A stretch of 53,397 nucleotides of DNA, taken from assembly GCA_039190745.1 (NCBI GenBank), contig JBCCXZ010000021.1, positions 1 to 53,397 of the forward strand, in the 5' to 3' direction. This document shows positions 14,728 through 34,009 of the stretch, piece by piece (position 1 is the first letter of the stretch; every line of letters starts with the position of its first letter). Position numbers and translations under genes: made by a program. This stretch comes from Planctomycetota bacterium (GTDB lineage: Bacteria; Planctomycetota; Planctomycetia; Pirellulales; Lacipirellulaceae). The notes under the pieces are model-generated. The model made no database searches. It worked only from the letters and a program-made list of their open reading frames with translations, and was not told where the DNA came from.

Positions 14728-14761
14728 GCCGTTCAGGAGCGGTGGGGAAACTGTCGCAGAT

Positions 14762-14791
14762 ATCCTACCGGAGTCGGCATAAGTTGTACAA
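14762..14791 (-). promoter_or_regulatory. Possible sigma70-type promoter for the PAL-PKS operon
   Basis: Minus strand reads TTGTAC-N18-TAGGAT, ending about 35 nt upstream of the PAL ATG. The -35 overlaps the palindrome TTGTACAA (14784-14791). Confidence 0.3.
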
Positions 14792-15073
14792 ATCGCCCGC
14801 TTGCCCAATGCTGCCCACGCAACGCCGCGATCCTCTTTGAGCCGAGGCACCACTCTGGCGTAGCTGAGGCCTGCGGAGGCAGCGTGAGTTTGCAGCCGTA
14901 GTGGTGCACAAGGTTTCGATGCTGCCGAAGTGATTGCCCGAGCCGGTCTCTTGCTCGCCCGCACTTCTACACCGCACGAGGACCCTGTGGAAAGAGCGAA
15001 CTGCTTGCGGATGCACGACGCGGCTTGCGGCAACACGCGACGGAGTCAGCGTCACACGGCGCCCGATACCGAG

Positions 15074-18000
15074 TTAGACTTCGGCGGATTGAACCAGGCA
15101 GCGATAGAGACAGGGCACAAAAAAGAGTGCGAGCGCCGTGGCGCCGGCGACACCGCCGGCAACGGTGATCGCGAGCGGCGGCCAGAATCCGCCCCCGCCC
15201 AAGACTAGCGGAGCGAAGCCGATCACCGTCGTCACCGTCGTCGCAAGGATATGCCGCGTGCAACCGGAGACGACCGCCGCCAACGCACGCCCGTTGCCGC
15301 CCCGGGCCGAGGGGTCATCGCGGATCGCGGCCAGGACGACAATCGAGTCGTTGATCGCAACCCCCACCAGGCCCATCGTGCCGACGATGGCCATGAACCC
15401 AAACGGGTAGCCGAATACCCACAGAGACAACGGGCCGAGCCCCACGGTCAGCGCTCCGACGGCCAACACGATCGCAGCACAACGGAACGAACCAAACACC
15501 GCCACGAGAGTTAGGATCATCAGTGAGAAGAGCAGCACGGCGTTCAACAACAGATTTCGCACCGCCCGGCTGCGTTCCCCGGCTTCGCCTTCGAAGGTCA
15601 GAGCGTATCCCGGTGGGAGTTCGAAGCCCGATTGCGCGAGCCGCGACCGGAAGTCATCCAGCACCGCCCCCGGGAGCACTCCGGCGCGAGTGTAGGCCTT
15701 GACTTCGTTTACGTGCTGGCCGTTGACCCTGGTGATCGCCGCGAAGTCAGAAGTAAGCCTTAACCGGGCCACAGAGGCGAGTGGAGAAGGAGCTTTAGGT
15801 TGCGGCCGAGGACCACCCCGCGGCATCGCAGGCAGGCCCTGAGGCGGACCGGCGGGCGGAAGCGGCAGCGCTGCCAGACGCGCCAGGCGCTCACTGCCCA
15901 ACGGCGCCATCCGAACGTGAACCGGCAGTTCTTCGCCGCCATCAAACACGGTTCCCGCAGGCGCACCCTCAAGGGAAGTGTAGAGGAACTGGGCCACCCT
16001 CTGTTCGTCTTGCCGCACCACGGCCGACTCCTGCGGGTCGAGGTCCAAGCTCAACAAGGGCACGGTTTCTTCCATGTCCGACCGTGTGTGCAGCACATCC
16101 GGCGTTTGGGTCAGCACCAGTCTCAGCCGCGAGCCGAGCTGTTGGAGTGTGGCCGGGTCGGGCCCCGCCACGCGTATCTCAATGGGCGCATCAATCGGCG
16201 GCCCTTGATCGAGCAGCCGCACAACCACGCGTCCGGAAAGATGGCGCCGGTCGACTGCCGATTGCAATGCGTTGACCAAAGCCGTCGTGTTCGCGCCGGG
16301 GGTAACGTCCAGGAAGGCTTGAGCATAGAACGGCGTCCCTCTGCGTCGCGGCACCACGTTGTAGTAGAACGTTGCCGCGCTGCGTCCCAAGAACCAGTGG
16401 GCATGCTCGATCCCTTGCTCGGCCCGGATAGTCCTGTCGATCGCCCGGACCGCCGCGAGCGTCGCGTCGATCGGCTGTTGCGCTGGCAGCTCCAACTCCA
16501 CATGGACTTGGTTGCGGCCCGACGGAGGGAAGAACTGCTTCGGCAGCAACGGGGCGCATGCCAAGCCAATCAGCGGCAACGCAAGGCCGGCCATCACCCC
16601 CAGAAGCGGAACCCGGAACAACACACGCAAGACCCACTGGTAGACCTTCTCGAGCGTTTGGTTCCGCAGGCCCCCCCAGCGTCCCGTGCCGGGAGCATCG
16701 TCGGAAAGCAAACCCAGCAGCGCCGGCACGACGGACATAGCCAGCAGGAACGACGCGGTGATCGCCAGGATCACGCTCACCGCGATCGAACCGACAAACT
16801 CTCCGGGCGGCCCCGGCAGCGTGGCGATCGGCAAAAAGGCCGCCGCAGTGGTAAGTGTCGAAGCAAAAAGCGGCATCGAGAGGTGGCGTACCCCGGCTCC
16901 GATCGCAGCGGCCGTCGGAGCCCCGCGAGACATCCGGGCGCGGATGTCTTCCACGATCACGATGGCGTTGTCGATTAGCAATCCCAGGGCAACGATCAGC
17001 CCCGTGACAGACATCTGGTGCAGCGGCACGCCAAGGGCCCGCAAACCTGTGAGCACCGCAAGGCACGAAAACGGGAGTGTTAAACCCACGACCAGCATGC
17101 ACCTCCAGCCCATCAGCAGCAGCACCACGCACAACACGCCCAGGCCGCTGAGCCCGAGGCTGCGCATCAGGCCGCCGAGGCGCGAGCGGATGTAGTCCTG
17201 CTGAAGGAAGAGGGTCTCGACAGAGACCTCGTCACCATACTCGGCTTCGAATTGCTCGATCCGGCGCTGGAACCCAGCGGTCCAGGCGTCGATCCTGAGA
17301 CCGTCATCTACCAGCACCCCCAGGAACAGTGCAGCAGCGCCATCGGCGAACGCCATCTCCGCCGGCGGAGAAGCGGTCTGTCTTTGCACCAACGCGATGT
17401 CGGCGACCGCGACATCGGCCCCCCGCAGCCGCAACCGCGTTTGAGCCACGCGGCTCGCCGGCGGTTGATCGCTGCCAAGTGCGATGAGCAATGCCTGTTG
17501 ATCGCCTCTCAAGTACCCGGCCGGGGTGCTGGGGTCGGCGTCCCGGATCTGCCCCGCGATTGCGCCCGTCGACGTGCCGAGCGACGCCAGCACCTCGGGC
17601 ATTAGTTCGACAGAGATTTCTTCTCCCGGGTCGCCGATCAGATCGACCCGCTCGGAGCCGAATTGACTTCGCAGTCGCGAAGCAAGCAGCGCCGCCCGCT
17701 TGCGGACGCGCGGGGTGATCTCGCCGTCCTGCTCGCTGGGACGCACGGCCACGATCGCTGCGAACGCCTTGAGCGGGACCACTTCCATCTCGGGTTCCAG
17801 GCACTCTTCGGGCAGGTCAGCCGCTGCTGCGTCGACCAGCTCGCGGACCCGCGTCCAAACGGCGTCGATATCGTCGACCCGATCGCGGAGCTTCAGCACC
17901 ACGTTGACCATCCCTGTGCGGCTATTGGACCTCAGCTCGCCGATTTCGGGGACCGGCTGCAGGGCCTCTTCGAGCTTTACGGCAACAAGCGACTCTACTT

Positions 18001-18169
18001 TCGCCGCGTTGGCGCCGGGGTAGGCCACGCTGACCACGCCGATCCGCTTACCTAATACGGGGTCTTCCAGCCGCGGCAGGGCCACGACCGCCCCGGCCCC
18101 GGCCGCGACGAGCACAAAGCCAACCAGCAGAAGCAGCCTCGGGTTGCGGTAAAGAAAAAGGGCGATCAT
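15074..18169 (-). CDS. RND efflux transporter permease (AcrB/AcrD/AcrF family)
   Basis: 1031 aa with two TM blocks and two periplasmic domains; YPGANA, GLLIDNAIVIVE, LPKQFFP, GVAINDSIVV, FWPPLAITVAGG. Confidence 0.92.
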   Translation of the reverse strand: MIALFLYRNPRLLLLVGFVLVAAGAGAVVALPRLEDPVLGKRIGVVSVAYPGANAAKVESLVAVKLEEALQPVPEIGELRSNSRTGMVNVVLKLRDRVDDIDAVWTRVRELVDAAAADLPEECLEPEMEVVPLKAFAAIVAVRPSEQDGEITPRVRKRAALLASRLRSQFGSERVDLIGDPGEEISVELMPEVLASLGTSTGAIAGQIRDADPSTPAGYLRGDQQALLIALGSDQPPASRVAQTRLRLRGADVAVADIALVQRQTASPPAEMAFADGAAALFLGVLVDDGLRIDAWTAGFQRRIEQFEAEYGDEVSVETLFLQQDYIRSRLGGLMRSLGLSGLGVLCVVLLLMGWRCMLVVGLTLPFSCLAVLTGLRALGVPLHQMSVTGLIVALGLLIDNAIVIVEDIRARMSRGAPTAAAIGAGVRHLSMPLFASTLTTAAAFLPIATLPGPPGEFVGSIAVSVILAITASFLLAMSVVPALLGLLSDDAPGTGRWGGLRNQTLEKVYQWVLRVLFRVPLLGVMAGLALPLIGLACAPLLPKQFFPPSGRNQVHVELELPAQQPIDATLAAVRAIDRTIRAEQGIEHAHWFLGRSAATFYYNVVPRRRGTPFYAQAFLDVTPGANTTALVNALQSAVDRRHLSGRVVVRLLDQGPPIDAPIEIRVAGPDPATLQQLGSRLRLVLTQTPDVLHTRSDMEETVPLLSLDLDPQESAVVRQDEQRVAQFLYTSLEGAPAGTVFDGGEELPVHVRMAPLGSERLARLAALPLPPAGPPQGLPAMPRGGPRPQPKAPSPLASVARLRLTSDFAAITRVNGQHVNEVKAYTRAGVLPGAVLDDFRSRLAQSGFELPPGYALTFEGEAGERSRAVRNLLLNAVLLFSLMILTLVAVFGSFRCAAIVLAVGALTVGLGPLSLWVFGYPFGFMAIVGTMGLVGVAINDSIVVLAAIRDDPSARGGNGRALAAVVSGCTRHILATTVTTVIGFAPLVLGGGGFWPPLAITVAGGVAGATALALFFVPCLYRCLVQSAEV

Positions 18170-19293
18170 TCGGTACCGGTTGGCTGACCGTTGTCGTCGA
18201 ACAAGACGGGAGTAACGCGTTGCCCCAACACAACGCGGTGGACGCCGTCGGACACGACCAGGTCACCCTCGCCGATCGAGCCGTCAACCAGCACCCGCTC
18301 TTCTTCCAGCAACAAGACGTTCACTGCTCGCCGCGACAGCTCGTCTCCCGTATCCCCGCGCACAACTGTATAAACCGACCACAGCCCGCCGGTCTCGCCC
18401 TGCAGCGCCGACATCGGCAGCCAGTAGCCCGCGTAGTCTGTCGGCAAGCGGAACCGGACCTCGACGCTCTCACCGGGGGTCCAGGCGAGACTCTCAGTTG
18501 CGTTCGTAGGCGTGAGCCGCACTAGCCGGGTCAGCGAAGACCGGTCGAGGAGCGGCGAAACCGAAGCGATGCGGGCCGCGACTTGCTGGGACCCCAGTGC
18601 AACGATTGCAGAGGTTCCCACAGATAGCACGGCGGCAACGCGATCGGGCACGTGTGCCTCAAAAACGGGGATGCCGTCCTCGAACACCTCAAACGCAACT
18701 GCCCCGGCGTTGACCATGTCCCCAACGTCGATCGAACGGGAGGCAACGGTCGCGTCGTAGGGCGCCTCGATCCCGCCCAGGTCGATTTCCCGACCGAGCT
18801 CTTGAAGCCGCACGTCGATCGTGCGGATCTCCTGCTCAAGCCGACTCCGCCTCTCGGTCTCCCCGAACGAATCCACACCGCGGGTCATCCCGGCCAGTTC
18901 TTCGCGGGCCGCTTCCCTGCGTGCGGTTAGCCCCCCCAGCTCGGCCTCGGGCCCGGCTTGGAACAAACCCGCCAGACGCTCTCCGGCCACAACCCGGTCG
19001 CCTGGCTGCTTAGTGACTTCCGACACGCGGCCGCTCATCGTGAACCGCAAGGTGCTCCGCCGAGGGGGTTCCGCAACCCCGAAGGCGACGGCCGTTTCGG
19101 AGACGGGACCACTAGGAGTCAGTCGAAGGACCTCCACTCGCAGCGGAACCGCGTCCCCTGTCGCCGTCGACGGCGGAAGCCCCACCGAGAGCAGGTCCCC
19201 GCAGCCCGGGAGTACGGATACCAACCCGCAGGCAAGCAGCCACAGCGGCCTCAGCGACGGGGGCATCGATGTTGACTGAGGGGCGTTCCGCAC
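18166..19293 (-). CDS. RND periplasmic adaptor (membrane fusion protein), probable lipoprotein
   Basis: Lipobox-like LPGC, SGRVSEV..QPGDRV and IEAPYDATV lipoyl halves flanking a coiled coil, GDLVVSDG C-terminus. Coupled to the permease. Start uncertain. Confidence 0.88.
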   Translation of the reverse strand: MRNAPQSTSMPPSLRPLWLLACGLVSVLPGCGDLLSVGLPPSTATGDAVPLRVEVLRLTPSGPVSETAVAFGVAEPPRRSTLRFTMSGRVSEVTKQPGDRVVAGERLAGLFQAGPEAELGGLTARREAAREELAGMTRGVDSFGETERRSRLEQEIRTIDVRLQELGREIDLGGIEAPYDATVASRSIDVGDMVNAGAVAFEVFEDGIPVFEAHVPDRVAAVLSVGTSAIVALGSQQVAARIASVSPLLDRSSLTRLVRLTPTNATESLAWTPGESVEVRFRLPTDYAGYWLPMSALQGETGGLWSVYTVVRGDTGDELSRRAVNVLLLEEERVLVDGSIGEGDLVVSDGVHRVVLGQRVTPVLFDDNGQPTGTE

Positions 19294-20540: not shown

Positions 20541-21347
20541 TCACCGATGCTGCCTGCAAGAAGACTGAGCCGAGCGTTTGACGGCGTACATGGCTGCGTC
20601 TGCTTCGTCGAGCAATTCTTCCAGCCCGGTTGAGCCGTCAAACGCAACGGCCACACCCACGCTTGCGCTGACGGTAAAGGAGCCGTTGCCTTGGTCGAGG
20701 GGCGCGGAAATCTGTCGCTTCAGCCGCGCGACAATCGCGTCCAAGTCCGTCGTCTCGGTAACCTCTCGCACAAAGACCGCGAATTCGTCGCCCCCGTAGC
20801 GCACGACCAAGTCTTCCCCTCGGATCGCGCCGGCCAGCCGTGTGGCAACCTCACGCAGGACCGCATCGCCCGCGACGTGGCCCAACCGGTCGTTGACCTG
20901 CTTGAAGCCGTCGAGGTCGACGAACAGCACCGCACAGGGGCGCCTCGCCGCCTCGGGAGTCGCACGCCAAGCGGCGAATTCCTCCGCAAGCGCTTGGCGG
21001 GTGGGGAGGCCCGTCAACGCGTCGCAGGGGAGACTGCCCCCGGAAGAGCGGGCGCCTACCGTGAGCACCAACGCACGCTGACCGGTTTCGATGAGATCGG
21101 CGGTCTCGATCCGGATCCGGCGTTGGTTGCCAACCGCGGCGTCAGAGCCTTCCAAACACTCTAACGACTCGACGAGATGGCCCAATGTGGCTGACGGCTC
21201 CTCCAGCACTTCGTCCAACCACGACCGGAGCGGCGGTGAGATGGCCAGAATCTGGTCGGTCGCGACGTCCGCGAGCACCACGCCGCGGAGCTCCGCGGCG
21301 GCGTCTTGATCGATAGGACTTCGAAGCTTGTCGTACGAGGAGATCAC
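20541..21347 (-). CDS. Diguanylate cyclase (GGDEF), last gene of the EPS operon
   Basis: DALTGLPTR, FVDLDGFKQVNDRLGHVAGD, RGEDLVVRYGGDEF (RxxD plus intact GGDEF), SVGVA, ADAAMYAVK. Starts 15 bp after the upstream stop. Confidence 0.92.
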   Translation of the reverse strand: MISSYDKLRSPIDQDAAAELRGVVLADVATDQILAISPPLRSWLDEVLEEPSATLGHLVESLECLEGSDAAVGNQRRIRIETADLIETGQRALVLTVGARSSGGSLPCDALTGLPTRQALAEEFAAWRATPEAARRPCAVLFVDLDGFKQVNDRLGHVAGDAVLREVATRLAGAIRGEDLVVRYGGDEFAVFVREVTETTDLDAIVARLKRQISAPLDQGNGSFTVSASVGVAVAFDGSTGLEELLDEADAAMYAVKRSAQSSCRQHR

Positions 21348-21362
21348 GGGGTTGTCTGAGCT

Positions 21363-22196
21363 CTAGTTGGTTGTGCTCTTGGAGTTCATCTTCTGGGTAT
21401 GCGAGCGGGCTTGTTCGCCGCGGACCCGCTGGCGGACCCACTGCTGGGCGAATCCCGCAACGAAGAGTGAGTTGGTGCTCACGTAACGTCCCGCCAGACG
21501 GCGCGGCTCGCTCGCCAGGCGGAACAGCCATTCCAGTCCGCGGCGTTGCATCCAGGAAGGCGCCATCGGTTTCACGCCCGCGTGGAAATCAAACGCCGCT
21601 CCAACGCAGAGCTGAACGACGCCCAGGCTCTCCCGGTGCTCGTAGGCGAAGTGCTCCTGTTTCGGGCAACCGATACCGACGAACAGGATCTTGGCGCCGC
21701 TCTCGCGCACCCGCCGGACGACCTCTGAATCCTCTTCGGAGGTCAGCGGACGGAACGGCGGCGACTCGGCCCCGGCGATCTGCAGACCGGGGAAACGCTC
21801 AAGCAGGTTACTCGACAGCGCATCGAGCACAGCGTCGGACGAACCGCCATACAGGTACACCGGGAGCGACTCCGCGGCGGCCCGTTCGCAAACCCGCAGC
21901 ATCGTCTCCGGGCCGTACACCCGTTCTGCCAAACACAGCCCGTAGAGGGCGTTGAGGGCCCAGCGGACCGACTGCCCGTCGGCGCCGATCAGGTCGAACG
22001 AGTTCACCCGTTCGAGCAACCGCTCGTCACGGTCGGAAGAGACGATCCCGTGTGCCGGGTAGAACGAGGCTAGGGCGGCTTGGCCCCGGCGGGCGGCTTC
22101 GACGATGCAGTCGACCGCTTCGTTGTACTCGGCGGCGCTCACGCGGACGCGCAGCACCTCGTACTTCTGGGGCCACTCAACTCGGTTTGCGGTCAT
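21363..22196 (-). CDS. WecB/TagA/CpsF family glycosyltransferase (GT26)
   Basis: ADGQSV, RVYGPE, YLYGG, SPPFRP, FVGIGCPKQE, VGAAFDF, GLEWLFRLASEPRRL. Confidence 0.93.
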   Translation of the reverse strand: MTANRVEWPQKYEVLRVRVSAAEYNEAVDCIVEAARRGQAALASFYPAHGIVSSDRDERLLERVNSFDLIGADGQSVRWALNALYGLCLAERVYGPETMLRVCERAAAESLPVYLYGGSSDAVLDALSSNLLERFPGLQIAGAESPPFRPLTSEEDSEVVRRVRESGAKILFVGIGCPKQEHFAYEHRESLGVVQLCVGAAFDFHAGVKPMAPSWMQRRGLEWLFRLASEPRRLAGRYVSTNSLFVAGFAQQWVRQRVRGEQARSHTQKMNSKSTTN

Positions 22197-23431
22197 GACA
22201 CATCTGCCATGGGAGGAGCGGCGACAGCTTCAGAGGCTTCGACGACATCGGTCGAGTAAGCAACCGCCCCCGGCTCACAAACGCTCGCGTAGATCGACAT
22301 CAGCAGTTCGTAGTTGCGGTCCGCGGTGTAGAGAGACTCGTAGCTCTGCCGGGCGCCTGTGCGGAGCTCGGCCCGAAATTTCGGGTCGTCTGCGATACGG
22401 CAGACCTTCTCGGCGAGGTCGTCTGGGTCGCGGGGCGAGAAGCCGAGGCCGTTTACCCCGTCGGAAACCATCTCCTCCAACGCGCCGAGCCGCGAGGCCA
22501 CTACGGGCGTGCCCACGGCAAACGCTTCTAGCAGTGTTTTGGGGCAGTTCTCGTACAGCCCGGAGGGCTGCACCAAGCAGGCGGCGTCTCCGACGATTCG
22601 CATCACTTCGTCCAGTTTCTTCCGCCCCAGCCACTCGACGCCCGGCAATCCTGCTGCTCGCTTCTCTATCTCTTCCTGCATCGGTCCGACGCCGATGATC
22701 TTCAGCGGCACCTTGGTCCCGATGCGCTCCCAGGCGTCGAGCAGGTTCGCAATGCCTTTTTCCTTGGCCAGTCTCCCTACGGACACGGCGTAGTTGCCCA
22801 AACCGGCGCCTGTGCCGGGGTCGGTCCAGATAAAGTTCGGCTTCACCACAATCTTGCCTGTCGGCAGCCCCCCGGCAACGAACTTCTCGGCGGAGAATCG
22901 GCTCAGCGTGATGTATCGATCAACGCACCGCTGCCAAGTCCCGAGCAGCTTGTGCACCAGGGTCATGGTCGCGACCACGCCGCTTGCCGAGCGGCTCGAT
23001 CGGTAGCAGCCGTGCAAGACGGCGGGCCAGGGGACGATGCGCTTCAAGCAGTCTTCGCAGGGCGCTCCGTCGCGGTAGAAACCCGCATCCGGGCACATCA
23101 GGCGGTAGTTGTGCAACGTCTGCACCACCGGCACGCCGGCCTCGCGGGCGGCGTAGTAAGCCGCGGGGGAAATCAATGGGAACGTGTTCGAGAAGTGGAT
23201 GACATCGGGCTTCTCCCGCCGCATCAGATTGAGCAACTCGCGGTACGTCGTCCGGTTCCACACCGTCCGCAGGGCGACTTCCAGCCCGCCCATGTGGTCG
23301 ATGACGTTGTTGTGCAGGCTGTAACGCAGCACCTCGTTCCCGCGAGACTCGAGCAACTGGCCCTCGTCGGCAAACACCTGGTCTTCGCCGCCGGCCTGCT
23401 GGTAGTAGTTGTGGCAGAGCAGCACCCTCAT
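22193..23431 (-). CDS. Glycosyltransferase family 4
   Basis: MRVLLCHNYYQQAGGED start (ATG 23431, overlapping upstream stop), TLHNYRLMCP, VGRLAKEKG, ENCPKTLLEAFAVGTPVV (ExxxxxxxE). Confidence 0.9.
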   Translation of the reverse strand: MRVLLCHNYYQQAGGEDQVFADEGQLLESRGNEVLRYSLHNNVIDHMGGLEVALRTVWNRTTYRELLNLMRREKPDVIHFSNTFPLISPAAYYAAREAGVPVVQTLHNYRLMCPDAGFYRDGAPCEDCLKRIVPWPAVLHGCYRSSRSASGVVATMTLVHKLLGTWQRCVDRYITLSRFSAEKFVAGGLPTGKIVVKPNFIWTDPGTGAGLGNYAVSVGRLAKEKGIANLLDAWERIGTKVPLKIIGVGPMQEEIEKRAAGLPGVEWLGRKKLDEVMRIVGDAACLVQPSGLYENCPKTLLEAFAVGTPVVASRLGALEEMVSDGVNGLGFSPRDPDDLAEKVCRIADDPKFRAELRTGARQSYESLYTADRNYELLMSIYASVCEPGAVAYSTDVVEASEAVAAPPMADVS

Positions 23432-24393
23432 CGCGGCGACCGCCCGGCACGCTGCCTCTGCTTCAGTCGGTGTTTCAGCCGGGGCGCCCAGTCGTACCAG
23501 CCCCCGAGCTTCCCGGCGAGCGTCGAGCCGGTGTCCCAATCGAACACCGTGATCCGCCCCCAGCCGAACGGGTCGCGTGCGGGGTCTACCAACTCCACCT
23601 CAGTCGTGAGTGCACAGCACGCGGTTGTCGAGCGTGCGGCCTCCATCAACTCTGGCCCCGCGAGGCCGTCGGCGACCGTGCCGAAGGGAAAAGAGAACGG
23701 GGGAGCATCGACCCCAAAGCTCCGCTGCACGATCTCGGCAGAGACCTCCATCTCCTCCAGGAAAGCCTCGCTGTGGCCGCGGAAGTCGGCGTGCGTGTGC
23801 GTGTGCGTGCCAATCTCGATCAGCCCGCTCGCGAGCATCGATTCGCACTGCTGTATTTGGATCGGCCGGTAGTGCGACCGCGGCACCCGTCCGGTGTATT
23901 CAAACGCCCACGTGTCGAACGGGAACGGCTTGTCCCCGTCTAGGTAGCCCGTGCACAGCAGCAGCGTCGCGGGAGTGCCCAGTTCCTGGAGGATCGGGAA
24001 CGCCTCCGTAAAGACCGTTTCGAAACAGTCGTCAAACGTCAGCACCACCGAACGCGACGGGAGCGGCTCGCCAGAGTGATGAGCCCGCAACGCGCTGCTG
24101 AGCGAGATAAAGCGGTAGCCGCGCTTGAGCAACCCGGTCAGCTGCGCCCGGAATGCCCGCGGCGTCGCGTTGTACGGTGGAGCGGGAACCCCCGGGGTCT
24201 GCGGGGCGACACGGTGGTAGGCCAAGATGCCCAAGGGCTGGTCGGCACGCGAGCCCGTCAGGTCCGAACAGGCTCCGCCGAATCGGGCGACCGCCCGCAT
24301 CGCGGCCTCTTGCAGTCGGGCCTTCCGGCCCGGTCGCCAAGGGCCCACCGGGACTTGCGGCTTGTCGGCGATCGACGCCACGGCGGTGCTCAT
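23428..24393 (-). CDS. Polysaccharide deacetylase (CE4/NodB homology)
   Basis: ILAYHRV, LTFDDC, HTHTH, FSFPFG motifs. No obvious signal peptide. Confidence 0.88.
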   Translation of the reverse strand: MSTAVASIADKPQVPVGPWRPGRKARLQEAAMRAVARFGGACSDLTGSRADQPLGILAYHRVAPQTPGVPAPPYNATPRAFRAQLTGLLKRGYRFISLSSALRAHHSGEPLPSRSVVLTFDDCFETVFTEAFPILQELGTPATLLLCTGYLDGDKPFPFDTWAFEYTGRVPRSHYRPIQIQQCESMLASGLIEIGTHTHTHADFRGHSEAFLEEMEVSAEIVQRSFGVDAPPFSFPFGTVADGLAGPELMEAARSTTACCALTTEVELVDPARDPFGWGRITVFDWDTGSTLAGKLGGWYDWAPRLKHRLKQRQRAGRSPR

Positions 24394-25634
24394 CGCGCCG
24401 GGCCTCCCAGCCGTGGCCGGTTGACGACCTCGCGGACCGCCGCACGGATGCGATCCGCGACCAGGTCAATCGACATCCGCTCAACCGAACGCCGTGAGCA
24501 GTCGCCCATCGCTCCGAGCAGCTCGCGGGCGGCGTAGGCTTCACGCAGGGCCCCGGTCAGGCTGCCGGCAGCCAGCGGGTCGGCCACCCAGCCGTTGACG
24601 CCTTCTTCGACAAGCTCCGATTCACCGCCGTAGACCGAACCGATCACGGGCAACCCCGAAGCCATCGCCTCTTCGAACGCGAGCGAGAAGCAGTCTCGCA
24701 ACGTCGGGAACGCGAACACGTCCGCCGACTGGTAGACCCTCGCCAGGTCTTCCCGGGGCCAGTACCCGAGCACCCGGACGTTCTGCAGCCCCAGTCGAGC
24801 CGCCATCGATTCGAGTTCCCCGCGGTCGGGCCCGTCCCCCGCGAGCAAGAGGGTGATCGGCTCGTCGACACCGTCACACAGTTCTGCCCAAGACTCCAAG
24901 AGCTGCCCAAGTCCCTTGGTGAAGGCCAAGTGCCCAACGTATAGAAACGTCAGGCCCTCGGCCCCCAACTCGGAACGCGTACGCGACCGCTCTGTGGAAC
25001 TCAAATCGGTGGAAAACGAATCAACGTCGAGCGCCTGCCCCACCTCGAAGATCGAGCCGCCCGGCACGCCCAACTCTTCCAGGAACAGCCGAGACTGTTT
25101 GCCGTTGCAGATGCAGCCGTCCAGCCTACGGCCCACGTAGCGTCGGATGTCTTTCTGCCGCGCCCCCGGGCTGGCCTCGGTGTGCGGGGTGCTCTCGCTG
25201 TAGACCATCAAACGGTGACCGGCGAGGCGTGCGGTCACCGTCGCCATAAGCGTCCGGGCACCGAACTCGGAGCTGATCGCAACGTCGGGCCGAAAGCGCA
25301 ACAGGTCCGGCACCACGCCGACGGGAACGTGGACCTGCCGACGCGTCTCAAGCGGCCCCGGGCCATCGACCCGTTGCCGACGGGTGTAGCGGAGCGAAAA
25401 ACTCTTCTTACTCGAGAAAGGCAGGTCCTGGGCGACCGACCACTGGCGGTCGTGCTCCCGGTCGATGCAGGTGAAGACGCAGAAATCCCAACCCTCGGTC
25501 TCCCCCAGCGCTGCGTAGAGCGGCACCCGGTACGGGGCGTTCTCGTTCGTCAGAAGGGCAACCCGCAGAGGTTTCGTCGATCGGCGAGCCGCTTGGCCGG
25601 TCGCCTCGACCGGCTCCAATTGTGAAGTGCTCAT
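24390..25634 (-). CDS. Glycosyltransferase family 4
   Basis: APYRVPLY, FLYVGHL..KG, AGDGP, ADVFAFPT..DCFSLAFEEAMASGLPVI. Confidence 0.88.
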   Translation of the reverse strand: MSTSQLEPVEATGQAARRSTKPLRVALLTNENAPYRVPLYAALGETEGWDFCVFTCIDREHDRQWSVAQDLPFSSKKSFSLRYTRRQRVDGPGPLETRRQVHVPVGVVPDLLRFRPDVAISSEFGARTLMATVTARLAGHRLMVYSESTPHTEASPGARQKDIRRYVGRRLDGCICNGKQSRLFLEELGVPGGSIFEVGQALDVDSFSTDLSSTERSRTRSELGAEGLTFLYVGHLAFTKGLGQLLESWAELCDGVDEPITLLLAGDGPDRGELESMAARLGLQNVRVLGYWPREDLARVYQSADVFAFPTLRDCFSLAFEEAMASGLPVIGSVYGGESELVEEGVNGWVADPLAAGSLTGALREAYAARELLGAMGDCSRRSVERMSIDLVADRIRAAVREVVNRPRLGGPAR

Positions 25635-26920
25635 GCCCGTGTCCTCGCCGGCGAGAGGGCGTCGGGGCCTGTCGCGCTCTGGCGCCAGAAGAGTGCGAAC
25701 AACCAGATCACGGTTTGCGCACGCGGCATCGGCCCGAACAGGGGCGACTCGGTCAGCCCGAACAGCAGGATGACCACGAGCACCAACACCGGGAAGAGTT
25801 CTCGGTACCGCAAGACCGAGTCGAACAGGCCCAGCAGCATGGCGGCGTAGATCGCGGCGCCCACCAACCCGGTGGTCAGCGCCGTGTTTAGCAGCATATT
25901 GTGCGCGTGAGACAACTCGGCGGCTCGGATCCCCGCTCGGTCAAAATCTACAAGCGCGTGCCGGGCCGATCCGTAGCCGTACCCGGTCACCGGCGATTCG
26001 GCGATGCACTCCAGCACGTAGGGCCAGAAGGTTGCCCGCCCCGTGATGTTGAAGATCTCGGCTTCGGTCCCCGTGCGTGACACGGAGGTCAGCACTGCTG
26101 CCCGGCGGACCTCGAAGAGCCCAGCGCCGTACGCGAACAGCCCCGCCGCGAGGACGGCCCCTCCCGTCAAAGCGGCGGCCACGGCCGTGCGTCGACCTCG
26201 CCGCAGGCACAGCCAGACGACGCCCACCGCTAGTGCGGCCAGCAGCGACGTACGGCTTTGCGCGAAGGCGATCGTCAGCAACCCGAAGAGCACAAACCCG
26301 CCGGTCGCCGACCGCGAGAGCTCCTTCCGCGAGGAGAGCGTCAAGGCCACGCAGATCAACCACACCGCCTGGAGGCCCAGCTGCTGCGCGTCGCCGCCCA
26401 CGCGGTACTCGATCACGCCGTCGACCAGATAAGGCGATCGGCCGATCGAGGGAAATAGAAAGTAGAGCGTCCAGGCCAAGCCAATGTACGAAGTGATTGC
26501 TGCGAGCAGCGTCCGCAGCACGGTACGCCGCCCGAGCTGGACCAACACGGCAGGCACAAAGAAGAAGGCGCAGGCGAGCACTCCGCAGGCCGCCGCAGCG
26601 TAGGCAGGCTGGACCGCAAGAGGCAGTGTCGCCGCCGCCCAGCCGATTAGCAGCAGCATCCATGCCCCGGGAAACAGCGTTAGGAAAGACGCGGTCGAAC
26701 GCCAGTAGCAGAGCCCATAAAGGCCGCACACGCCGCACACCGCGAGCCGTACCAGCAGCTGCGTATCGAGCCCAAACTTCTCTCCCGCGTCGGGTCGGAA
26801 GTCGTAAGTGGGGACAATCACCAGCGCGGCCAGCAGCGAGCAACTCAGCCAGTGAGGGGCCCGGGCGAATGAAAAAACGCCCATCCCTTGGAGGCCCGTG
26901 TGTGCGGCGGCGGTGCTCAT
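25631..26920 (-). CDS. O-antigen ligase-like / Wzy polymerase membrane protein
   Basis: Multi-TM protein with QSRTS, TGRATFW, SPVTGYGYG and HAHN motifs. Start ATG 26920 overlaps the flippase stop. Confidence 0.82.
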   Translation of the reverse strand: MSTAAAHTGLQGMGVFSFARAPHWLSCSLLAALVIVPTYDFRPDAGEKFGLDTQLLVRLAVCGVCGLYGLCYWRSTASFLTLFPGAWMLLLIGWAAATLPLAVQPAYAAAACGVLACAFFFVPAVLVQLGRRTVLRTLLAAITSYIGLAWTLYFLFPSIGRSPYLVDGVIEYRVGGDAQQLGLQAVWLICVALTLSSRKELSRSATGGFVLFGLLTIAFAQSRTSLLAALAVGVVWLCLRRGRRTAVAAALTGGAVLAAGLFAYGAGLFEVRRAAVLTSVSRTGTEAEIFNITGRATFWPYVLECIAESPVTGYGYGSARHALVDFDRAGIRAAELSHAHNMLLNTALTTGLVGAAIYAAMLLGLFDSVLRYRELFPVLVLVVILLFGLTESPLFGPMPRAQTVIWLFALFWRQSATGPDALSPARTRA

Positions 26921-28284
26921 GGCACGGAACCCTCCTCCGCAGCGGGAGCAGCTGGAGACCCGATACGCCTCGCCTCCAGTCCGATCACCGTGACCAACAG
27001 CCCGACGGACACGGCGTGCCCGACCAGAGCTCCGTAGGGGATCGCCAACTCGGCCCAACGGTCGTAGCAGAGGTACACGAACAGCAGCATCGCGGCCGCA
27101 CCGCCGCAGCGGGTGTAGACGCTCACGAGCGCCTTGTCGCGCCCCTGGAGGTACGACTCGGCGATCCTCCCCAGCCCCGCAACTGCGTAGGCGGGAAGCA
27201 GCGCCAGAGCCAAAGGCGTCGCTTCACGGAACCGTTCGCCGTACACGAGCACCATCAGCGGTTCGAGGAACAAACCAAAGACCGCCGCGGCAAGCGTCTG
27301 GACCGCAAGGATCAGGCCGCCGAGTTTCACGAGTTGCCGAAGCGACGGCGGGCCGCCTCGCTGGGCACCCGCGTTGAATGCAAACAACGAAATCGCGAGC
27401 GGCAGCACCATCAGGAAAGTCGCCGCGGGCACCGCCGCCGCGTAGTAGCCCTGCATGGTGAAACTAGCCAGCGACAAGAACAAGAAGACATCGATGCGCT
27501 CGAACAGGTCCGACGCGAGCACCGCCAAGGCGTACGGCCTACCCCGGTGCAGCAACCGAGCGGGCGTCGGTCCGCGAGACGAATCCAGTACCTCGCCTGA
27601 TCGCCGGTCGCCCCGTGTTGCGAACCGCCGGTAGGCCAGCCCGAGCACCGGCATCATGACAAAACACACGCCCGCCCATTGGACCGAGGCCCCGCCGGTG
27701 AGCCACATCAGGCTCAAGAGCATTGGGAAACCGACGCCAGAAACCAGCCGGCTGGCGTTGTAGCGATCAAACCGTCTCAGGCCGTGGTCGAGCGAGAGCC
27801 ACAACTGACGGACGTGCTCCAACGGCAAGAACAACGCGCAGAACAAGCAGAGCCATGCCAAGTGCCGTTTCTCTGAGGGCAAGGCCGCGACGGACAGCAC
27901 ACCGACCACCAGCATCGTAACCACCCCGGTCGAGATGCCCAGCCGCACCGCCGTCGCGGAGAGGCGTTGTTCGTCCTGGCTCCGGCGGGTGGCCCAGCGT
28001 GCAATCGCGTGCTGCGTGCCCAACAGGCCGATGAACGTGAACGTCTGAGAAAAGAACACCGCCGTTGCGTATTGCCCGCGACCCTCGGGGCCGAGCATCC
28101 GCGCCAGCAGGACGCCCTGCAGGGCGTAGAGGCCGTACAGCGCGAAGGACGTTGCCACTGTCTGGAGCATGTCCCGAGAGACAAGCCGGCGGACCCCGTC
28201 GACAACGCGGCGCGACCAAGCCGCACCGGCCTGGCTACCGTCCGGCACTGCTGAGGCGGCGATGGTGGGGGAATCGTGCGACAT
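26917..28284 (-). CDS. Wzx-type oligosaccharide flippase
   Basis: LLARMLGPEGRGQY, about 12 hydrophobic segments, RIDVFL...GYYAAA, VYGERF. Confidence 0.88.
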   Translation of the reverse strand: MSHDSPTIAASAVPDGSQAGAAWSRRVVDGVRRLVSRDMLQTVATSFALYGLYALQGVLLARMLGPEGRGQYATAVFFSQTFTFIGLLGTQHAIARWATRRSQDEQRLSATAVRLGISTGVVTMLVVGVLSVAALPSEKRHLAWLCLFCALFLPLEHVRQLWLSLDHGLRRFDRYNASRLVSGVGFPMLLSLMWLTGGASVQWAGVCFVMMPVLGLAYRRFATRGDRRSGEVLDSSRGPTPARLLHRGRPYALAVLASDLFERIDVFLFLSLASFTMQGYYAAAVPAATFLMVLPLAISLFAFNAGAQRGGPPSLRQLVKLGGLILAVQTLAAAVFGLFLEPLMVLVYGERFREATPLALALLPAYAVAGLGRIAESYLQGRDKALVSVYTRCGGAAAMLLFVYLCYDRWAELAIPYGALVGHAVSVGLLVTVIGLEARRIGSPAAPAAEEGSVP

Positions 28285-28312
28285 GCCTACCGGCCCGCCA
28301 AGCGGCGGCGAT

Positions 28313-29425
28313 TCACCTCGCGCCTTTGCGGGAGATCACCGAGGGAACCGTCTGCAGTAAGATCTTCACGTCGTTCCACAAGCTCATCGAACGGACATAC
28401 TCCAGGTCCATCCGCACCCATTGGGCGAAAGTGACCGAGGAACGACCTCGGACCTGCCAGATGCACGTCAGCCCCGGCACGACGTCTAGCCGGCGGCGTT
28501 GCCAAGTGTTGCACCCCTCGGCTTCGTCGACGGGCAGCGGACGCGGGCCCACGAGCGACATCTCTCCCCGCAGCACATTCCACAGCTGGGGCAACTCGTC
28601 GATGCTGGTGCTGCGGAGCACCCGCCCCACCCGCGTCACGCGGGGGTCGTCGGTCAGCTTGAACGCCGGCCCGTCCTGTTCGCTCAGGCTCCGCAGGGCA
28701 GCCTTCTCGGCGTCGGCGCCCTGCCGCATCGAGCGGAACTTAAACATCCGGAACGTTCGCCCGCGGTGACCGGTCCGGGGTTGAACAAAGAACACGGGCC
28801 CAGGCGACTCGGCCTTCACCAGCACCGCGACCGCCGCCAACAGCGGTGCGGACAGGACGATCAACCCAGCCGAGCCGGCGATGTCCACCGCACGCTTCCA
28901 GCGGGGGTGCGCCGCAGCCAAGAGCGGCTCCATCGGGTGTACCGCAGAGCCGTCGTGCGCCGCGGCTTCGTCGTGCGTTGCAGTTTCTTGGTCAGCCGAC
29001 GCGTCGTCCTGCGGCATCCCGTCGAGATCGAAGTCGGAAGGGTAAACAAAGACTTGGTAAGCAAGCCGCCCGCCCGCCTCTGCGAAACGGGAACGCACCT
29101 GCCGTGCCACAACGTGGGCTCCCTCGGCGGGGGTCTCGGGCAGCACCACGCCGATTCGGCCATCGGCGAGATACCCTTTGTCGTCGGTGATCCTAAGGCG
29201 TTCTTCGAGGATCTCTGCGAGCTCCTGCACGCCCGGCCCGTTGGGGCTCGGGTAGTCGATCTCGAAAGCGACTAGACAGAACGTCGAGTCGGACCGGCTC
29301 GCGAGGAACCGGGCCCGTTCCAAGAAGAACATCAACCGGTCGTTGGGCAACAGTATTCCGTGCGGCTCGTTGGCCAGCTTACGGTTTTGGCGGCGTAGAG
29401 CGGCCAGGAGGTTTCTCAGGGGCAT
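28313..29425 (-). CDS. Priming sugar (phosphoglycosyl) transferase with N-terminal degenerate GGDEF-like domain
   Basis: C-terminal Bac_transf motifs KRAVD, SPGPVFFVQPR, FKFRSM, DPRVTRVGRVLR.TSIDELPQLWNVLRGEMSLVGPRP, PGLTCIWQV. N-terminal RLRITDDKGYLADGRIGVVLPET aligns in register with RxxDxxxRxGGDEFxxxLP. Start ATG 29425 or TTG 29437. Confidence 0.9.
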   Translation of the reverse strand: MPLRNLLAALRRQNRKLANEPHGILLPNDRLMFFLERARFLASRSDSTFCLVAFEIDYPSPNGPGVQELAEILEERLRITDDKGYLADGRIGVVLPETPAEGAHVVARQVRSRFAEAGGRLAYQVFVYPSDFDLDGMPQDDASADQETATHDEAAAHDGSAVHPMEPLLAAAHPRWKRAVDIAGSAGLIVLSAPLLAAVAVLVKAESPGPVFFVQPRTGHRGRTFRMFKFRSMRQGADAEKAALRSLSEQDGPAFKLTDDPRVTRVGRVLRSTSIDELPQLWNVLRGEMSLVGPRPLPVDEAEGCNTWQRRRLDVVPGLTCIWQVRGRSSVTFAQWVRMDLEYVRSMSLWNDVKILLQTVPSVISRKGAR

Positions 29426-29491: not shown

Positions 29492-30184
29492 TTATCGCGT
29501 TCGATTGAGCACAGCGCCGATCAGGGCAGCTCCACTCGTGCGGAGCTTTTGCTGGGCGCGGTCGGCGTGGCGGGCATCCGTGCGGCCGGCTTCAATCACG
29601 AGCACCACGCCGTCGAGCAGTCGGGCCATCGAGGTGCAGTTACTGCTCGAGTCCACAGCGGGGAGGTCGACCACCACGAAGTCGAATTCTCCTTTCAGCT
29701 CGCTCAGCAGCGCCCGGAACGCGGCGGGATCGTAGTCGTGGCCAAGACCGCCGGGCTCTCGGCCGCCGGCTAAAAAGCTCAGTCGGTCGAAGCGGGTCGA
29801 AATCAGGCAGTCGCCGAGCAAGGCGGCGCCGCTCAGTGCGTCCGACAGGCCGCAGGTCGGCGTCAGGCCGAGCCGCTCGGCCGGGCCGCCCCGGCGACGG
29901 GCTCCCGCGCAGTCAATCAGTAGTACCCGCCGGTTCGGGCACCCTGCCGCCAGGGCCGACAGATTGATCGCGGTGGTCGTCACGCCTTCGCCGGCATGTG
30001 AACTCGTAACGCCCAGCGCGTAAGCAGAGGCGGAAAGGTCTTGCTGGTGGTCGAGAACCCGGCTTAGCAGAGCGGAGTACTGCTCGCTCGCCGGGTGCGT
30101 GGGCGCGGGTTGGCCGGGCGAGCCCTGCTGAGACGTCGTCGCGGTTTCCCCGGCGTTCTGCGTGTGCGATATCATCGGCGTCAC
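29492..30184 (-). CDS. CpsD/CapB-like (BY-kinase family) P-loop protein with degenerate Walker A
   Basis: GVTSSHAGEGVTT, RVLLIDC, GLSDAL, FDFVVVDLP, DGVVLVI, GAVLN. No C-terminal Tyr cluster. Confidence 0.85.
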   Translation of the reverse strand: MTPMISHTQNAGETATTSQQGSPGQPAPTHPASEQYSALLSRVLDHQQDLSASAYALGVTSSHAGEGVTTTAINLSALAAGCPNRRVLLIDCAGARRRGGPAERLGLTPTCGLSDALSGAALLGDCLISTRFDRLSFLAGGREPGGLGHDYDPAAFRALLSELKGEFDFVVVDLPAVDSSSNCTSMARLLDGVVLVIEAGRTDARHADRAQQKLRTSGAALIGAVLNRTR

Positions 30185-30185
30185 C

Positions 30186-31742
30186 TCAGTTCATCAGGAC
30201 GCGGTCGCGGCGTACCGCCGGAGTACTCGCCAACACGGGCAGCCCGAGTTGGCCCTCGACATCGGCCGCGTCACGCAGCGTGGGCTTCCGGAGCTCGGCA
30301 AAAATCGCGGTGCAAACCGCGCCAAACAAAGCGAGCACCAAGCCGGCCCCAAGCACGATAGCCTTCTTCGGGCTGTACGGCTTCTCGACCAAGGTCGCGG
30401 GCTGCGTGATGCTCACGTTAGAGATCTGCTGCTGGTCGAGCGACTGTTGGATCCGAGCCTGTTCGAGTTTCTCCGAGTAGATGCGGTAGTTCGTATCCGC
30501 AAGTTCCAACTCGCGTTGCAAGTCGGTCACGACGCGCTCCTGGTCGTTCAGCTGCACGACCGCCGCCAGGGCCTTCTCGTGCTGGGCCAAGAGGTCGGCC
30601 ACCTGAGCCTCGCCCGCGGTCGCTGCGGCCCGCTCGGTCAGCAGAGCAAGCTCTAGTTCCCGCAAGGCCGGGTTGGCCGCGGTCGTGTTGTAGACCCGCG
30701 AAGCCGCTTGCGTCTCAAGGATCTTCTCCGCGTTGGCGACCTGGTCGCGGACCGCGACCACGCTGGGGTGGTCGGACGTATACTTCGAGAGGAGCTCTTT
30801 CTCCTCGATCTGCAGCTCGAACAACAGCTGCCGCATGCTGTCGCCCGCCACGTTTGGCATCCCAGCCACCTGCTGGGCCTCGACCCGTTTGGGCAGCCCG
30901 GCGATCAGCCGCTCGAGCGCATCGATCCGGGCCCGGTTCGCGGCCAGCAAAGTCTCGGCAGACTGCTGCTCGGCAATGACTTTCTGCAGCTGAGACTCGA
31001 CCAGCGTGCGCTTCCCCTCGATCGAAGCCAACTGATTCTCGCTCTTAGCTTGCCGCAGTCGATCAGACGCGTCGCTGAGCCTCCTTGAGAACAGCTCGGC
31101 CTGCCCGACGAAAAAGTCATAAGAGCCTTGAGTCTTATGGATCCGTCGGTGTTCACGCAGGTACTCGTCCGAAATCGCCTTGGCAAACCATTGGGCCTGC
31201 TGCGGTGACCGGCCGCGGCAATTGACCGCCAGGAAGTGCGACTTGCGGGCGTGGTAGATGTACGCGTTCTTCGAGAGGGTCTGGATGGCCTTCTCGCGAT
31301 CGCTCAACGGCCCGGTGGGCTCTAACCAAGCGACCACAGTCCCCAGTGCGGAAGAAAGTCCGCTCAGGACGCCGGGCTCTTCGTCGGCCCCCTCAGAGTT
31401 CGGCGGGGAGAGGATCGCTTCCGGACCGAGCCGATCGACAACCTTCTCCATCAATCCGCGACTCTGCAGAATCTCTAGGATCGAGTTCAACTCGGCGTCG
31501 CGAGATTCGTTGAGCGTCAGGGTTTGGTTCGTCGTGACCGTGGGATCGAGCGTCACGCTCTCCCGGCCGACATCGACGAACAATAGGGCTTCCGACTCGT
31601 AAGTCCGCGGGAGCACCAAGAGCGACGCCACCGCCAGGGCCGCGATCAGTACGAACACGAAACCTGACTTCAAGCGGTGACGACGCACGACTCGCAGCAG
31701 GTCTGAGATCCCCGGAGCGGTCGTTTCTTGTTGGGTGACCAT
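30186..31742 (-). CDS. GumC/Wzz-like polysaccharide co-polymerase (chain length determinant)
   Basis: N-terminal TM followed by PRTYESEA, long coiled coil, SNVSITQPA..PYSP, second TM, and VEGQLGLPVLA. Confidence 0.88.
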   Translation of the reverse strand: MVTQQETTAPGISDLLRVVRRHRLKSGFVFVLIAALAVASLLVLPRTYESEALLFVDVGRESVTLDPTVTTNQTLTLNESRDAELNSILEILQSRGLMEKVVDRLGPEAILSPPNSEGADEEPGVLSGLSSALGTVVAWLEPTGPLSDREKAIQTLSKNAYIYHARKSHFLAVNCRGRSPQQAQWFAKAISDEYLREHRRIHKTQGSYDFFVGQAELFSRRLSDASDRLRQAKSENQLASIEGKRTLVESQLQKVIAEQQSAETLLAANRARIDALERLIAGLPKRVEAQQVAGMPNVAGDSMRQLLFELQIEEKELLSKYTSDHPSVVAVRDQVANAEKILETQAASRVYNTTAANPALRELELALLTERAAATAGEAQVADLLAQHEKALAAVVQLNDQERVVTDLQRELELADTNYRIYSEKLEQARIQQSLDQQQISNVSITQPATLVEKPYSPKKAIVLGAGLVLALFGAVCTAIFAELRKPTLRDAADVEGQLGLPVLASTPAVRRDRVLMN

Positions 31743-31949: not shown

Positions 31950-33260
31950 CTACTCGTGCCGCAAGGCTTCGATCGGGTCCAGCCGGGCTGCCCGTACCGC
32001 GGGATAAACGCCAAAAAGCACGCCCACGACCACGGAGATCGCGAACGACAGCGGGATCGACCAAGCCACAAGCTGTGGCTCGACCTCGCGGATGAGTTCC
32101 GGCAGCGTGGCCATCTGTGCCGGGAAAATGCGTTCCATGACCGAGCGGATAAACAACAGGATCGGCTTGCAGAACACGCCCCCCGCGATGCCGAGCGTGC
32201 CGCCCACTACGGAGAGGACCACGCTCTCCACCAAGAACTGGCGGGTGATGTCCCGACGTTTGGCGCCGAGGGCCCGGCGGATGCCGATCTCCCGGGTCCG
32301 CTCTGTGACCGTCGCCAGCATGATGTTCATGATCCCGATCCCGCCGACGAGCAGCGACACCGCAGCGATCAGCCCCAGGAACAGGATAAACATCAGCCGC
32401 GTCGTGTTCGCCTGCTCGATCAACTCCAGCGGAACCGTCAGGGCGAAGTCCGGCATCGAGTGCCCGTAGGCCACGGTGTTTTGAACAAGGTCCGCGGTCG
32501 GCAAGACAAGGTTTCGATCTTCTACCCGCAGCGTAATCTGCGAGACCTCCACGATGTCCCGCTGAAACGTGCCCGGCTTGGTCACGATCACCATGTCCCC
32601 AATCCGTCGCCAGAGCGTCGTAATCGGGATGTACACGTCGTAGCTGTAGTCTTCCGCCGCTAGCGAACCGCCGATGCCCGCCGACGAGTTCCTCGGACGC
32701 ATCGTCCCGACCACGGTGTAGAACTCGTCGGCGACCATGATCTCCTCGCCGATTGGGTTGCCGTACGGGAAGAGCTTCGCCGTCGTCCCCGCAGCGAGCA
32801 CGCAGTAGTTGCGTTCCTCTTCGATGTCCGCGTCGCTGAGGAAGCGGCCCCCGTCCAGCTCCAGCCGCGTGAGCGCCGCGTAGCCCGGGGTGCTCCCGAC
32901 CAACCGGCCCTCCAACTTGCGTGTGCGGTAGCGGAACTCTTCGGGCAACTCGCGGATCGGCACCACCGAGTCGACCGTCGGCACAGTCGCAATAAGCCGC
33001 AGGTAGTCCGCCCGCGTGAGGCCGTAGCCGCCGTCGCCGAGTTCATCGGCGGACGGCTTAATGGTCCGGACAATGATGTTCCGCGCGCCGAGGTCGGCGA
33101 TCTGCTCCTGGGCCGCCCGCCCGATCCCCTCGCCGATCGCGAGCAGCCAGATGACGCCGGTCACGCCGATCAGGATGCCCAGCACCGTGAGCGCCGACCG
33201 CAGCGGGTGCAGCAGCAGGCTCTTCACGCTGAGCTTCAGGGTCCGGATCCAAACGGTCAC
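31950..33260 (-). CDS. MacB-like ABC transporter permease
   Basis: [68 protein letters not shown]. Confidence 0.93.
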
Positions 33261-33961
33261 GAGCGGATCCTCTCGTCAGACAGCACCTCGCCGTCGCGGA
33301 GCACGACGTTCCGCTTCGTCCGCTCGGCGACGTCCGGCTCGTGCGTCACCATGATGATGGTCCGCCCGGATTGGTTGAGGTCCTCCAGCAGAGCGAGGAT
33401 TTCGTCGGTCGTCGCCGAGTCGAGGTTGCCCGTCGGCTCGTCTGCCAGGATGAACCGCGGGTCGTTCACCAGGCTCCGCGCGATCGCCACACGCTGCTGC
33501 TGACCGCCGGAGAGTTGCGTCGGCCGATGGTCCAACCGGTCCTCCAGGCCCACCATGCCGGCCAGTTCTCTGCACCGCGCGCGGGCCTCGGCGCTCAGCC
33601 TGCCGCTGTAGAACAGCGGCACCTCAATGTTCTCGACGACCGACAACGCCGGCAGCAGGTTGTACGACTGAAACACGAAGCCGATCCGCGTCGCACGCGT
33701 CTCGGCCAGCTGGTCGTCGTCCATCGCCGCGACGTCATCGCCGCCAAGCAGGAAGCTCCCCGACGTCGGGCGGTCGAGGCACCCGAGCAGGTTCAGCAGC
33801 GTGCTCTTGCCGGAGCCCGAAGGCCCCATGATCGAGATGTAGTCCCCCTCCGGCACCTCGAGCGAAACGCCGCGGAGCGCGTGGACCGTCTCGCCGCCTA
33901 GGACGTAGTCTTTTCGCAGGTCGGTCAGCCGAGCGGCGAGTGCTAGTGCGTTGCTGACCAC
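33257..33961 (-). CDS. ABC transporter ATP-binding protein (LolD/MacB type)
   Basis: [45 protein letters not shown]. Confidence 0.95.
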
Positions 33962-34009
33962 GGTAGGCGCTGCTCCCAGGCGGGGCTTTGTTGAAAACGC
34001 CGCTGCCCT

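Follow-up and report, generated by a model that had tools for sequence, protein, structure and literature searches.

The window analyzed here is a 53,397-nucleotide contig of a planctomycete genome (JBCCXZ010000021.1, assembly GCA_039190745.1) that carries an exopolysaccharide (EPS) gene cluster on its minus strand, to which all coordinates of the cluster refer. Within this cluster, the gene for the priming phosphoglycosyltransferase (PGT; 28313-29425) encodes a fusion of a miniature, degenerate GGDEF domain (mini-GGDEF), an acidic linker and a monotopic PGT (monoPGT). The N-terminal domain (N-domain) adopts in its predicted structure the fold of a diguanylate cyclase (DGC), has lost the active site and keeps both halves of the inhibitory site (I-site). 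From these features we predict that it probably binds cyclic di-GMP (c-di-GMP), and we favor, with moderate confidence, the view that binding controls the output of the PGT.

An earlier note on this DNA, made from its letters alone, had recognized a GGDEF fold without its catalytic motif at the N terminus of the transferase, and profile searches, structure prediction and structural comparison now bear this out. Pfam detects the domain weakly (GGDEF_2, E 0.012). A profile built from 12 diverged planctomycete copies matched 23 Protein Data Bank sequences at E<=1, with GGDEF domains first and 3ign as the best match (E 1.9e-9). The AlphaFold model computed from a 116-row alignment (pLDDT 89.7, pTM 0.84) superposed on solved GGDEF domains with Z scores of up to 13.6 and a root mean square deviation (rmsd) of 2.4 Å over 113 aligned residues. 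The structural ranks 1 to 36 were all occupied by GGDEF-fold chains, the first unrelated row had a Z of 7.7, and Foldseek returned 79 matches at E<=0.001, with a TM score of 0.80 to 5euh. This model superseded a single-sequence one (pLDDT 72) that had reached Z 7.0 to 7.7 with GGDEF domains and gave no Foldseek match at E<=0.001.

The start codon is taken as the ATG at 29425; the frame is open from a TTG at 29437, from which residues are numbered. The mini-GGDEF domain occupies residues ~27-133 (29039-29359) and lacks the GTP-binding loop, the last helix and the last strand, its length being about 112 residues up to a conserved YP, compared with roughly 160 for the full fold (161 in the Pfam model). 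Relative to solved cyclases, 9 to 10 residues are deleted across the DxFKxxND..GH GTP-binding loop. The metal-binding motif lacks its first Asp, the position of E59 is variable in the family, and ADGRI (29153-29167) stands in place of GGDEF. Judged by ADGRI and the deleted loop, the N-domain cannot be a cyclase. The alignment to the cyclase pattern, previously described as gap-free, is so from the RxxD motif onward only, because the GTP-binding loop is deleted upstream, and the fold is truncated at the C terminus. A profile comparison of the N-domain with the operon's own cyclase gave nothing meaningful (probability, 1.4) and hence no sign of a duplication of the neighboring gene.

The primary I-site, RxxD, is intact as RITD (R82-D85, 29183-29194), as the earlier note had it, and ADGRI lies five residues past it, the spacing of the I-site-receptor pattern. 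In order to evaluate conservation without circularity, we picked 120 proteins by their PGT domain alone, dropped 11 with fewer than 110 residues before that domain, and aligned the remaining 109 with a profile whose nine I-site-area columns were masked. The N-domain was present in 109/109. R82 and D85 were each conserved in 108/108, R48 in 106/106, R80 in 107/108 and R41 in 102/105, at a median identity of 38%, and the five GGDEF positions varied across the same homologues. R48 (29294-29296), in helix alpha-1, aligns with the WspR arginine that lies 44 residues before RxxD, namely R198, the secondary, trans I-site. WspR is reported to bind c-di-GMP via R242xxD245 together with R198 from the partner domain, and mutants of either arginine to purify nucleotide-free (PMC2270323). 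Three residues before R48, 86/106 homologues have an arginine and the copy studied has L45; an arginine at either of two such alpha-1 positions is reported to serve as the trans site (PMC8041772). A further 40 genomic loci picked by the PGT all encoded the fusion (40/40), with RxxD kept in 35 of the 39 readable copies.

A homodimer prediction for residues 22-140 with four c-di-GMP molecules scored 0.70, against 0.28 for the best control, with pLDDT of at least 88 and runs agreeing in at least 82% of contacts. The mark applied is reached by 20/30 solved homo-pairs and 1/23 monomers, a calibration that is rough for the present case, and the ligand lies outside the score. At the predicted interface, E40, R41, F44, L45, R48, S49 and S51 of alpha-1 face R82-T84 and P100/E101 of the partner. 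In the model, the back-to-back dimer thus has the geometry of I-site cross-linking, with R48 against the RxxD of the other chain.

The catalytic half has kept all the hallmarks of a monotopic PGT. Its Bac_transf domain (PF02397; residues 181-368, 28316-28897) scores 217 bits against a cut-off of 27 (E 1.5e-64), and the Dx12P re-entrant helix (D185-P198), the DE dyad (D280/E281) and GPRP are all intact; the dyad is present in 120/120 homologues and Dx12P in 118/120. The re-entrant segment is the single hydrophobic one in the protein, which begins with a basic amphipathic helix (29375-29425). Sensor and catalytic domain are joined by a linker (28904-29038) with 11 D/E and no K/R. Among homologues the linker is net negative in 71/95 and measures 28 to 183 residues (median, 40).

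At E<=1e-10, the N-domain profile found 1602 representatives (clusters at 50% identity) in a set of 1.84 billion; the best 150 were examined, and lower ranks may include ordinary GGDEF domains. In these best 150, 66 representatives extend for 110 residues or more beyond the domain, and a PGT domain is present in 62 of the 66. The source names of the fusion proteins include Planctomycetota, Desulfobulbaceae and Deltaproteobacteria. Across related genomes, 34/61 have a match, this one counted, and 25/36 do so within its family. Two to three mini-GGDEF copies occur in tandem in 13 of the best 150 representatives, and RxxD is kept in all 27 copies read (from 12 tandem proteins and one single-copy protein). 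Such tandem copies before one PGT (P0018, P0028, P0020-P0027 and P0137, Desulfobulbaceae included) could allow cross-linking within one chain. Automatic labels flag a few tandem members as "glycosyltransferase/GGDEF," including one 54-member Atlas cluster, and the architecture can thus be seen in databases. Nor is the module confined to PGT fusions, since P0139 combines a receiver domain, a mini-GGDEF and PilZ. Longer chains, P0158 (by a weak Pfam match) and L162 (an open frame of 675 amino acids [aa]), place a BcsQ/BY-kinase-like ATPase domain before the mini-GGDEF and PGT. In a search of the phylum with alignment A3, the PGT domain acted as a confounder, and the resulting tally (323/401) was not used; about 11 of the full-length matches start in the N-domain. 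A protein-based locus search in metagenomes found nothing.

The operon ends with a DGC gene (20541-21347) whose GGDEF motif, recognized as intact in the earlier note, was confirmed at 20781-20795. The protein consists of a variable N-terminal region, which by eye may be PAS-like, and a GGDEF domain (Pfam E 3.9e-39) with its own RxxD (RGED, 20811-20822). With DxDxFKxxND, GGDEF and DxLT at 109, 144 and 185, its motifs predict an active DGC. In stretches of about 20 kb, a GGDEF gene was present at 44 of 72 fusion loci overall, the chance expectation being ~2.6% per random 20 kb of this genome; some stretches end at contig ends, so absences of the cyclase are soft. Among loci picked by the N-domain, 24/32 had such a gene, 23 of them divergent directly upstream of the fusion gene and one upstream of wzc. 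Loci picked by the PGT had one in 20/40: in 6 the gene stood at the operon end, as here, in 10 it was divergent and upstream of wzc, in 3 divergent and upstream of the fusion gene, and in 1 it followed the fusion gene directly. Sixteen of these 20 genes read GGDEF, and four read DGDEF (L167, L169, L186 and L188), one being frameshifted.

The linked cyclases, that of this operon included, form one lineage (support, 0.97; after additions, 42/43 fell in a clade with a support of only 0.76) that remains linked, in shuffled positions, in nine or more families. A chance inversion near an ancestral neighbor was rejected as the origin of the operon-end cyclase, as the other flanking gene is unshared with relatives and the operon-end position recurs in six other loci. 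The four fusion copies without RxxD had no linked GGDEF gene, compared with 20/35 of the rest that had one (one-sided Fisher test, 0.047, or 0.11 with intact GGDEF only); in numbers this small and non-independent, the association of RxxD loss with cyclase absence is no more than suggestive. Five genes of the genome give strong GGDEF matches, and one EAL domain is present, which shows that c-di-GMP signaling exists and that other sources are available. The link to the cyclase is thus genuine without being obligatory, that of a recurring partner.

On the minus strand, the cluster reads from a Wzc/Wzz-like polysaccharide co-polymerase (PCP-2; wzc, 30186-31742) through a bacterial tyrosine kinase (BY-kinase)-like protein (29492-30184) and the PGT to a Wzx flippase (26917-28284) and a membrane protein of the Wzy_C/O-antigen-ligase family, presumed to be the Wzy polymerase (25631-27058). 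There follow a GT4 glycosyltransferase (24390-25634), a polysaccharide deacetylase (23428-24393), a second GT4 glycosyltransferase (22193-23539, the bounds of an open reading frame whose real start is likely further downstream), a glycosyltransferase of the WecG/TagA family, to which HfsJ belongs (21363-22196), and the DGC, which starts 15 bp past the wecG stop codon. The extent given earlier, 20541-29425, was too short, as the operon begins upstream with wzc at 31742. The Wzx and PCP-2 assignments are clear, and the Wzy_C match cannot separate polymerase from ligase. No outer-membrane polysaccharide export gene lies in the operon; PF02563 genes are present elsewhere in the genome. A scan yielded 0 promoters and terminators at chance level; it was uninformative, so we infer co-transcription from gene spacing only.

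The BY-kinase-like protein has neither the Walker A lysine nor a tyrosine tail and is a predicted BY pseudokinase. Across 33 unique related copies, none had a Tyr cluster or the Lys of the Walker A motif in its place (a single off-site regular-expression match was set aside), and none of 31 more copies had the Walker A Lys, whereas a control Wzc encoded on contig C7 of the same genome has both. By sequence, this is a conserved BY pseudokinase/PCP-2 pair in planctomycetes with the features of EcpK and HfsB; the report that defines the pseudokinase PCP-2 subfamily does not mention planctomycetes in its main text (PMC12004946). Phosphorylation probably does not control the pathway, and a different input could take this place. 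The arginine patch of the N-domain was considered as a reader of a phosphotyrosine tail; this idea was discarded, as the BY protein lacks one.

Other genes of the window lie on either side of the operon. Upstream of it, a MacB/ABC/HlyD exporter with a 964-aa outer-membrane efflux-like protein (31950-38501, minus strand) is absent beside most related loci. On the other side, a secondary-metabolite cluster (1267-15036, minus strand) contains a flavin halogenase-like gene, a 2681-aa type I polyketide synthase, an AMP-binding/PP-binding protein and an aromatic amino-acid lyase, and it is adjoined by a resistance-nodulation-division efflux pair (15074-19293).

The explanation that we prefer, and that we hold to be fairly probable as a whole, is that the first lipid-linked step is switched on when c-di-GMP cross-links two PGTs. 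The ligand would bind the dead mini-GGDEF domain that keeps both I-site halves, and intercalated c-di-GMP dimers would connect R82/D85 in one chain with R48 in a second one, in a back-to-back homodimer where alpha-1 of each copy packs on the RxxD of the other. Intercalated binding is likely by analogy with PleD, WspR and DgcR. Dimerization would activate the PGT to load the lipid carrier with its first sugar phosphate, and the linked cyclase would be the preferred, not exclusive, source of c-di-GMP. Provided that binding controls output, the effect is probably activation; we infer this from the dimerization of WbaP and EpsZ through accessory domains, the EpsW-EpsZ model and the activation of HfsJ. 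WbaP is reported to form a homodimer through its cytoplasmic accessory domain (PMC10942596), and c-di-GMP to activate HfsJ in holdfast synthesis (PMC9980756).

Several observations weigh against this explanation. RxxD by itself is weak evidence, since it also occurs in most local canonical cyclases and in other degenerate domains, and it was lost in 4/39 readable genomic copies, two of which had also lost R48. The position equivalent to R390 of PleD, a cis arginine reportedly used for c-di-GMP (RxxD+31, here Q113; PMC7288161), is Asp in 67/109 homologues and Arg in 2/109, and no conserved Arg is found at 112 or 115, so that a third arginine of the PelD type is missing (R402 of PelD was mapped by analogy and spacing, not by residue-level superposition). 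PelD is reported to need R402 besides RxxD for c-di-GMP binding (PMC2170427), whereas DgcR is reported to be cross-linked by c-di-GMP without using its R390/R402 equivalent (PMC8041772). The lineage of this copy has A42 and L45 where the wider family keeps E42 (83/105) and R45 (86/106), and because of these replacements its sequence is that of a less canonical member of the family. The dimer prediction, run in a single condition with ligand present, may reflect memory of solved GGDEF/c-di-GMP dimers. As to the cyclase, 28/72 fusion loci have no GGDEF gene, and a motif scan returned four loci, three of them distinct and these the closest with the same gene order, of which 3/3 lacked a cyclase in the ~2 kb after wecG. 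It is also missing from 10/11 phylum-wide loci, the one present coming from another lineage, and eight cyclase orthologues stand without an EPS cluster in the DNA read; the genomes are kin, and counts overstate their independence. The co-occurrence expected in the earlier note therefore holds for part of the family, and a "dedicated, self-contained" cyclase was too strong a description.

Among the alternatives, one keeps c-di-GMP binding and changes the output: the domain would serve recruitment or localization, to the pseudokinase/PCP, to WecG or to a polar site, with catalysis unchanged. PopA is a precedent for such an output, a linker as long and variable as that of the fusion suits tethering over direct allostery, and the partner BY kinase is a scaffold-type pseudokinase, comparable to EcpK (PMC12004946). 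The modelled interface is instead a self-dimer that uses both conserved arginine sites, and large monoPGTs are reported to dimerize through accessory domains (PMC10942596; PMC12802240), so we regard pure recruitment as unlikely. Equally unlikely in our estimation is that, at least in this lineage, c-di-GMP plays no part and the arginine patch is a ligand-independent dimer surface or an anion surface for membrane lipid, a UDP-sugar or the protein's own acidic linker. The acidic R390-like site, the hydrophobic F44/L45 at the modelled interface together with the missing R45/E42, the acidity of the linker and the cyclase-free closest loci of the same order would all fit such a surface. Against it speak the invariance of precisely those residues that make up both halves of the known I-site, the linkage of one cyclase lineage in shuffled positions across families and, in small numbers, the lack of a linked GGDEF gene at all four copies without RxxD. 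Least probable, in our view quite improbable, is that cross-linking inhibits the transferase, for a polysaccharide made at low c-di-GMP such as a swimmer-cell capsule: the same cross-link is reported to be inhibitory in PleD, WspR and DgcR (PMC7288161; PMC2270323; PMC8041772), yet c-di-GMP is reported to stimulate synthesis in the EPS precedents (PMC12802240; PMC9980756), and a cyclase encoded in the same orientation at the end of the operon is better suited to positive feed-forward.

Beyond this copy, activation by cross-linking may apply to a class. We put forward tentatively, as slightly less probable than its opposite, that PGTs of planctomycetes, Desulfobulbaceae and other deltaproteobacteria would have turned the product-inhibition cross-link of a cyclase into an on-switch, with tyrosine-kinase control lost. 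In such a widespread class, c-di-GMP made by a co-inherited cyclase would dimerize the PGT via the minimal GGDEF module and thereby gate how undecaprenyl phosphate is committed to a Wzx/Wzy polysaccharide.

Each ingredient of this proposal has a precedent: EPS receptors with an I-site, a c-di-GMP-controlled early holdfast enzyme and a partner-controlled priming PGT. PelD of the Pseudomonas aeruginosa Pel system, named as the model in the earlier note, shares a dead GGDEF fold and RxxD tied to EPS (Z 9.4; rmsd, 3.4 Å; 105 residues). It is a separate membrane protein with transmembrane (TM) helices and a GAF domain, reported to act in a synthase-dependent system and to need R402 (PMC2170427), whereas the domain studied here forms one chain with a PGT encoded in a Wzx/Wzy-type operon, and its corresponding helix carries no conserved arginine. 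PelD is thus a poorer model than the cross-linking of PleD, WspR and DgcR, which match with Z 12.9 to 13.1 and combine RxxD with a trans alpha-1 arginine, the residues used in the modelled dimer. Those proteins are active cyclases that their product inhibits; the present domain has lost the active site, the GTP loop and the C-terminal part, so the cross-link itself would be the output. BcsE, whose GIL domain serves cellulose secretion, is likewise reported to be a degenerate GGDEF domain that keeps the I-site (PMC8461298; Z 7.9 to 8.0), but it is a stand-alone cytosolic subunit of a synthase complex with no PGT fusion.

In Caulobacter holdfast synthesis, c-di-GMP from a particular cyclase, DgcB, is reported to activate the early glycosyltransferase HfsJ (PMC9980756), and the operon described here also has a WecG-family glycosyltransferase, a deacetylase and a BY pseudokinase (an HfsAB pseudokinase pair in Caulobacter). 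The target there is HfsJ, of the WecG family, and not the priming PGT, and there is no fused receptor of GGDEF fold. EpsW-EpsZ of Myxococcus and WbaP of Salmonella are reported examples of an initiating PGT controlled or dimerized via a cytoplasmic accessory domain (PMC12802240; PMC10942596). EpsZ and WbaP have four TM helices and a domain of unknown function, the input of EpsZ being a phosphorylated response regulator, in contrast to the single hydrophobic segment and built-in nucleotide-sensor fold of the present PGT.

The monoPGT sequence-similarity-network study of O'Toole et al. (PNAS 2021) reportedly lists regulatory-domain fusions and could mention this architecture. In the literature covered by our searches, which this network survey was not part of, those aimed at the fusion returned no description of a GGDEF-fold domain fused to a PGT, in line with the earlier note. 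A 2025 publication on how PGTs are regulated describes the post-translational control of Wzx/Wzy pathways as incompletely understood; tyrosine phosphorylation and, newly, a response regulator are the only inputs listed there, and c-di-GMP allostery is kept for synthase-dependent systems (PMC12802240).

If the proposal is correct, there would be a direct link from c-di-GMP to the step at which the shared lipid carrier is spent, and these fusions would be the first directly c-di-GMP-gated initiating PGTs. As the domain is mostly invisible to Pfam, its relatives would make up a large hidden class of candidate c-di-GMP receptors, and a soluble domain of about 115 residues makes the proposal readily testable. 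The fusion would then be a candidate switch for the synthesis of a planctomycete adhesin or holdfast, and an entry point to the regulation of surface attachment in planctomycetes.

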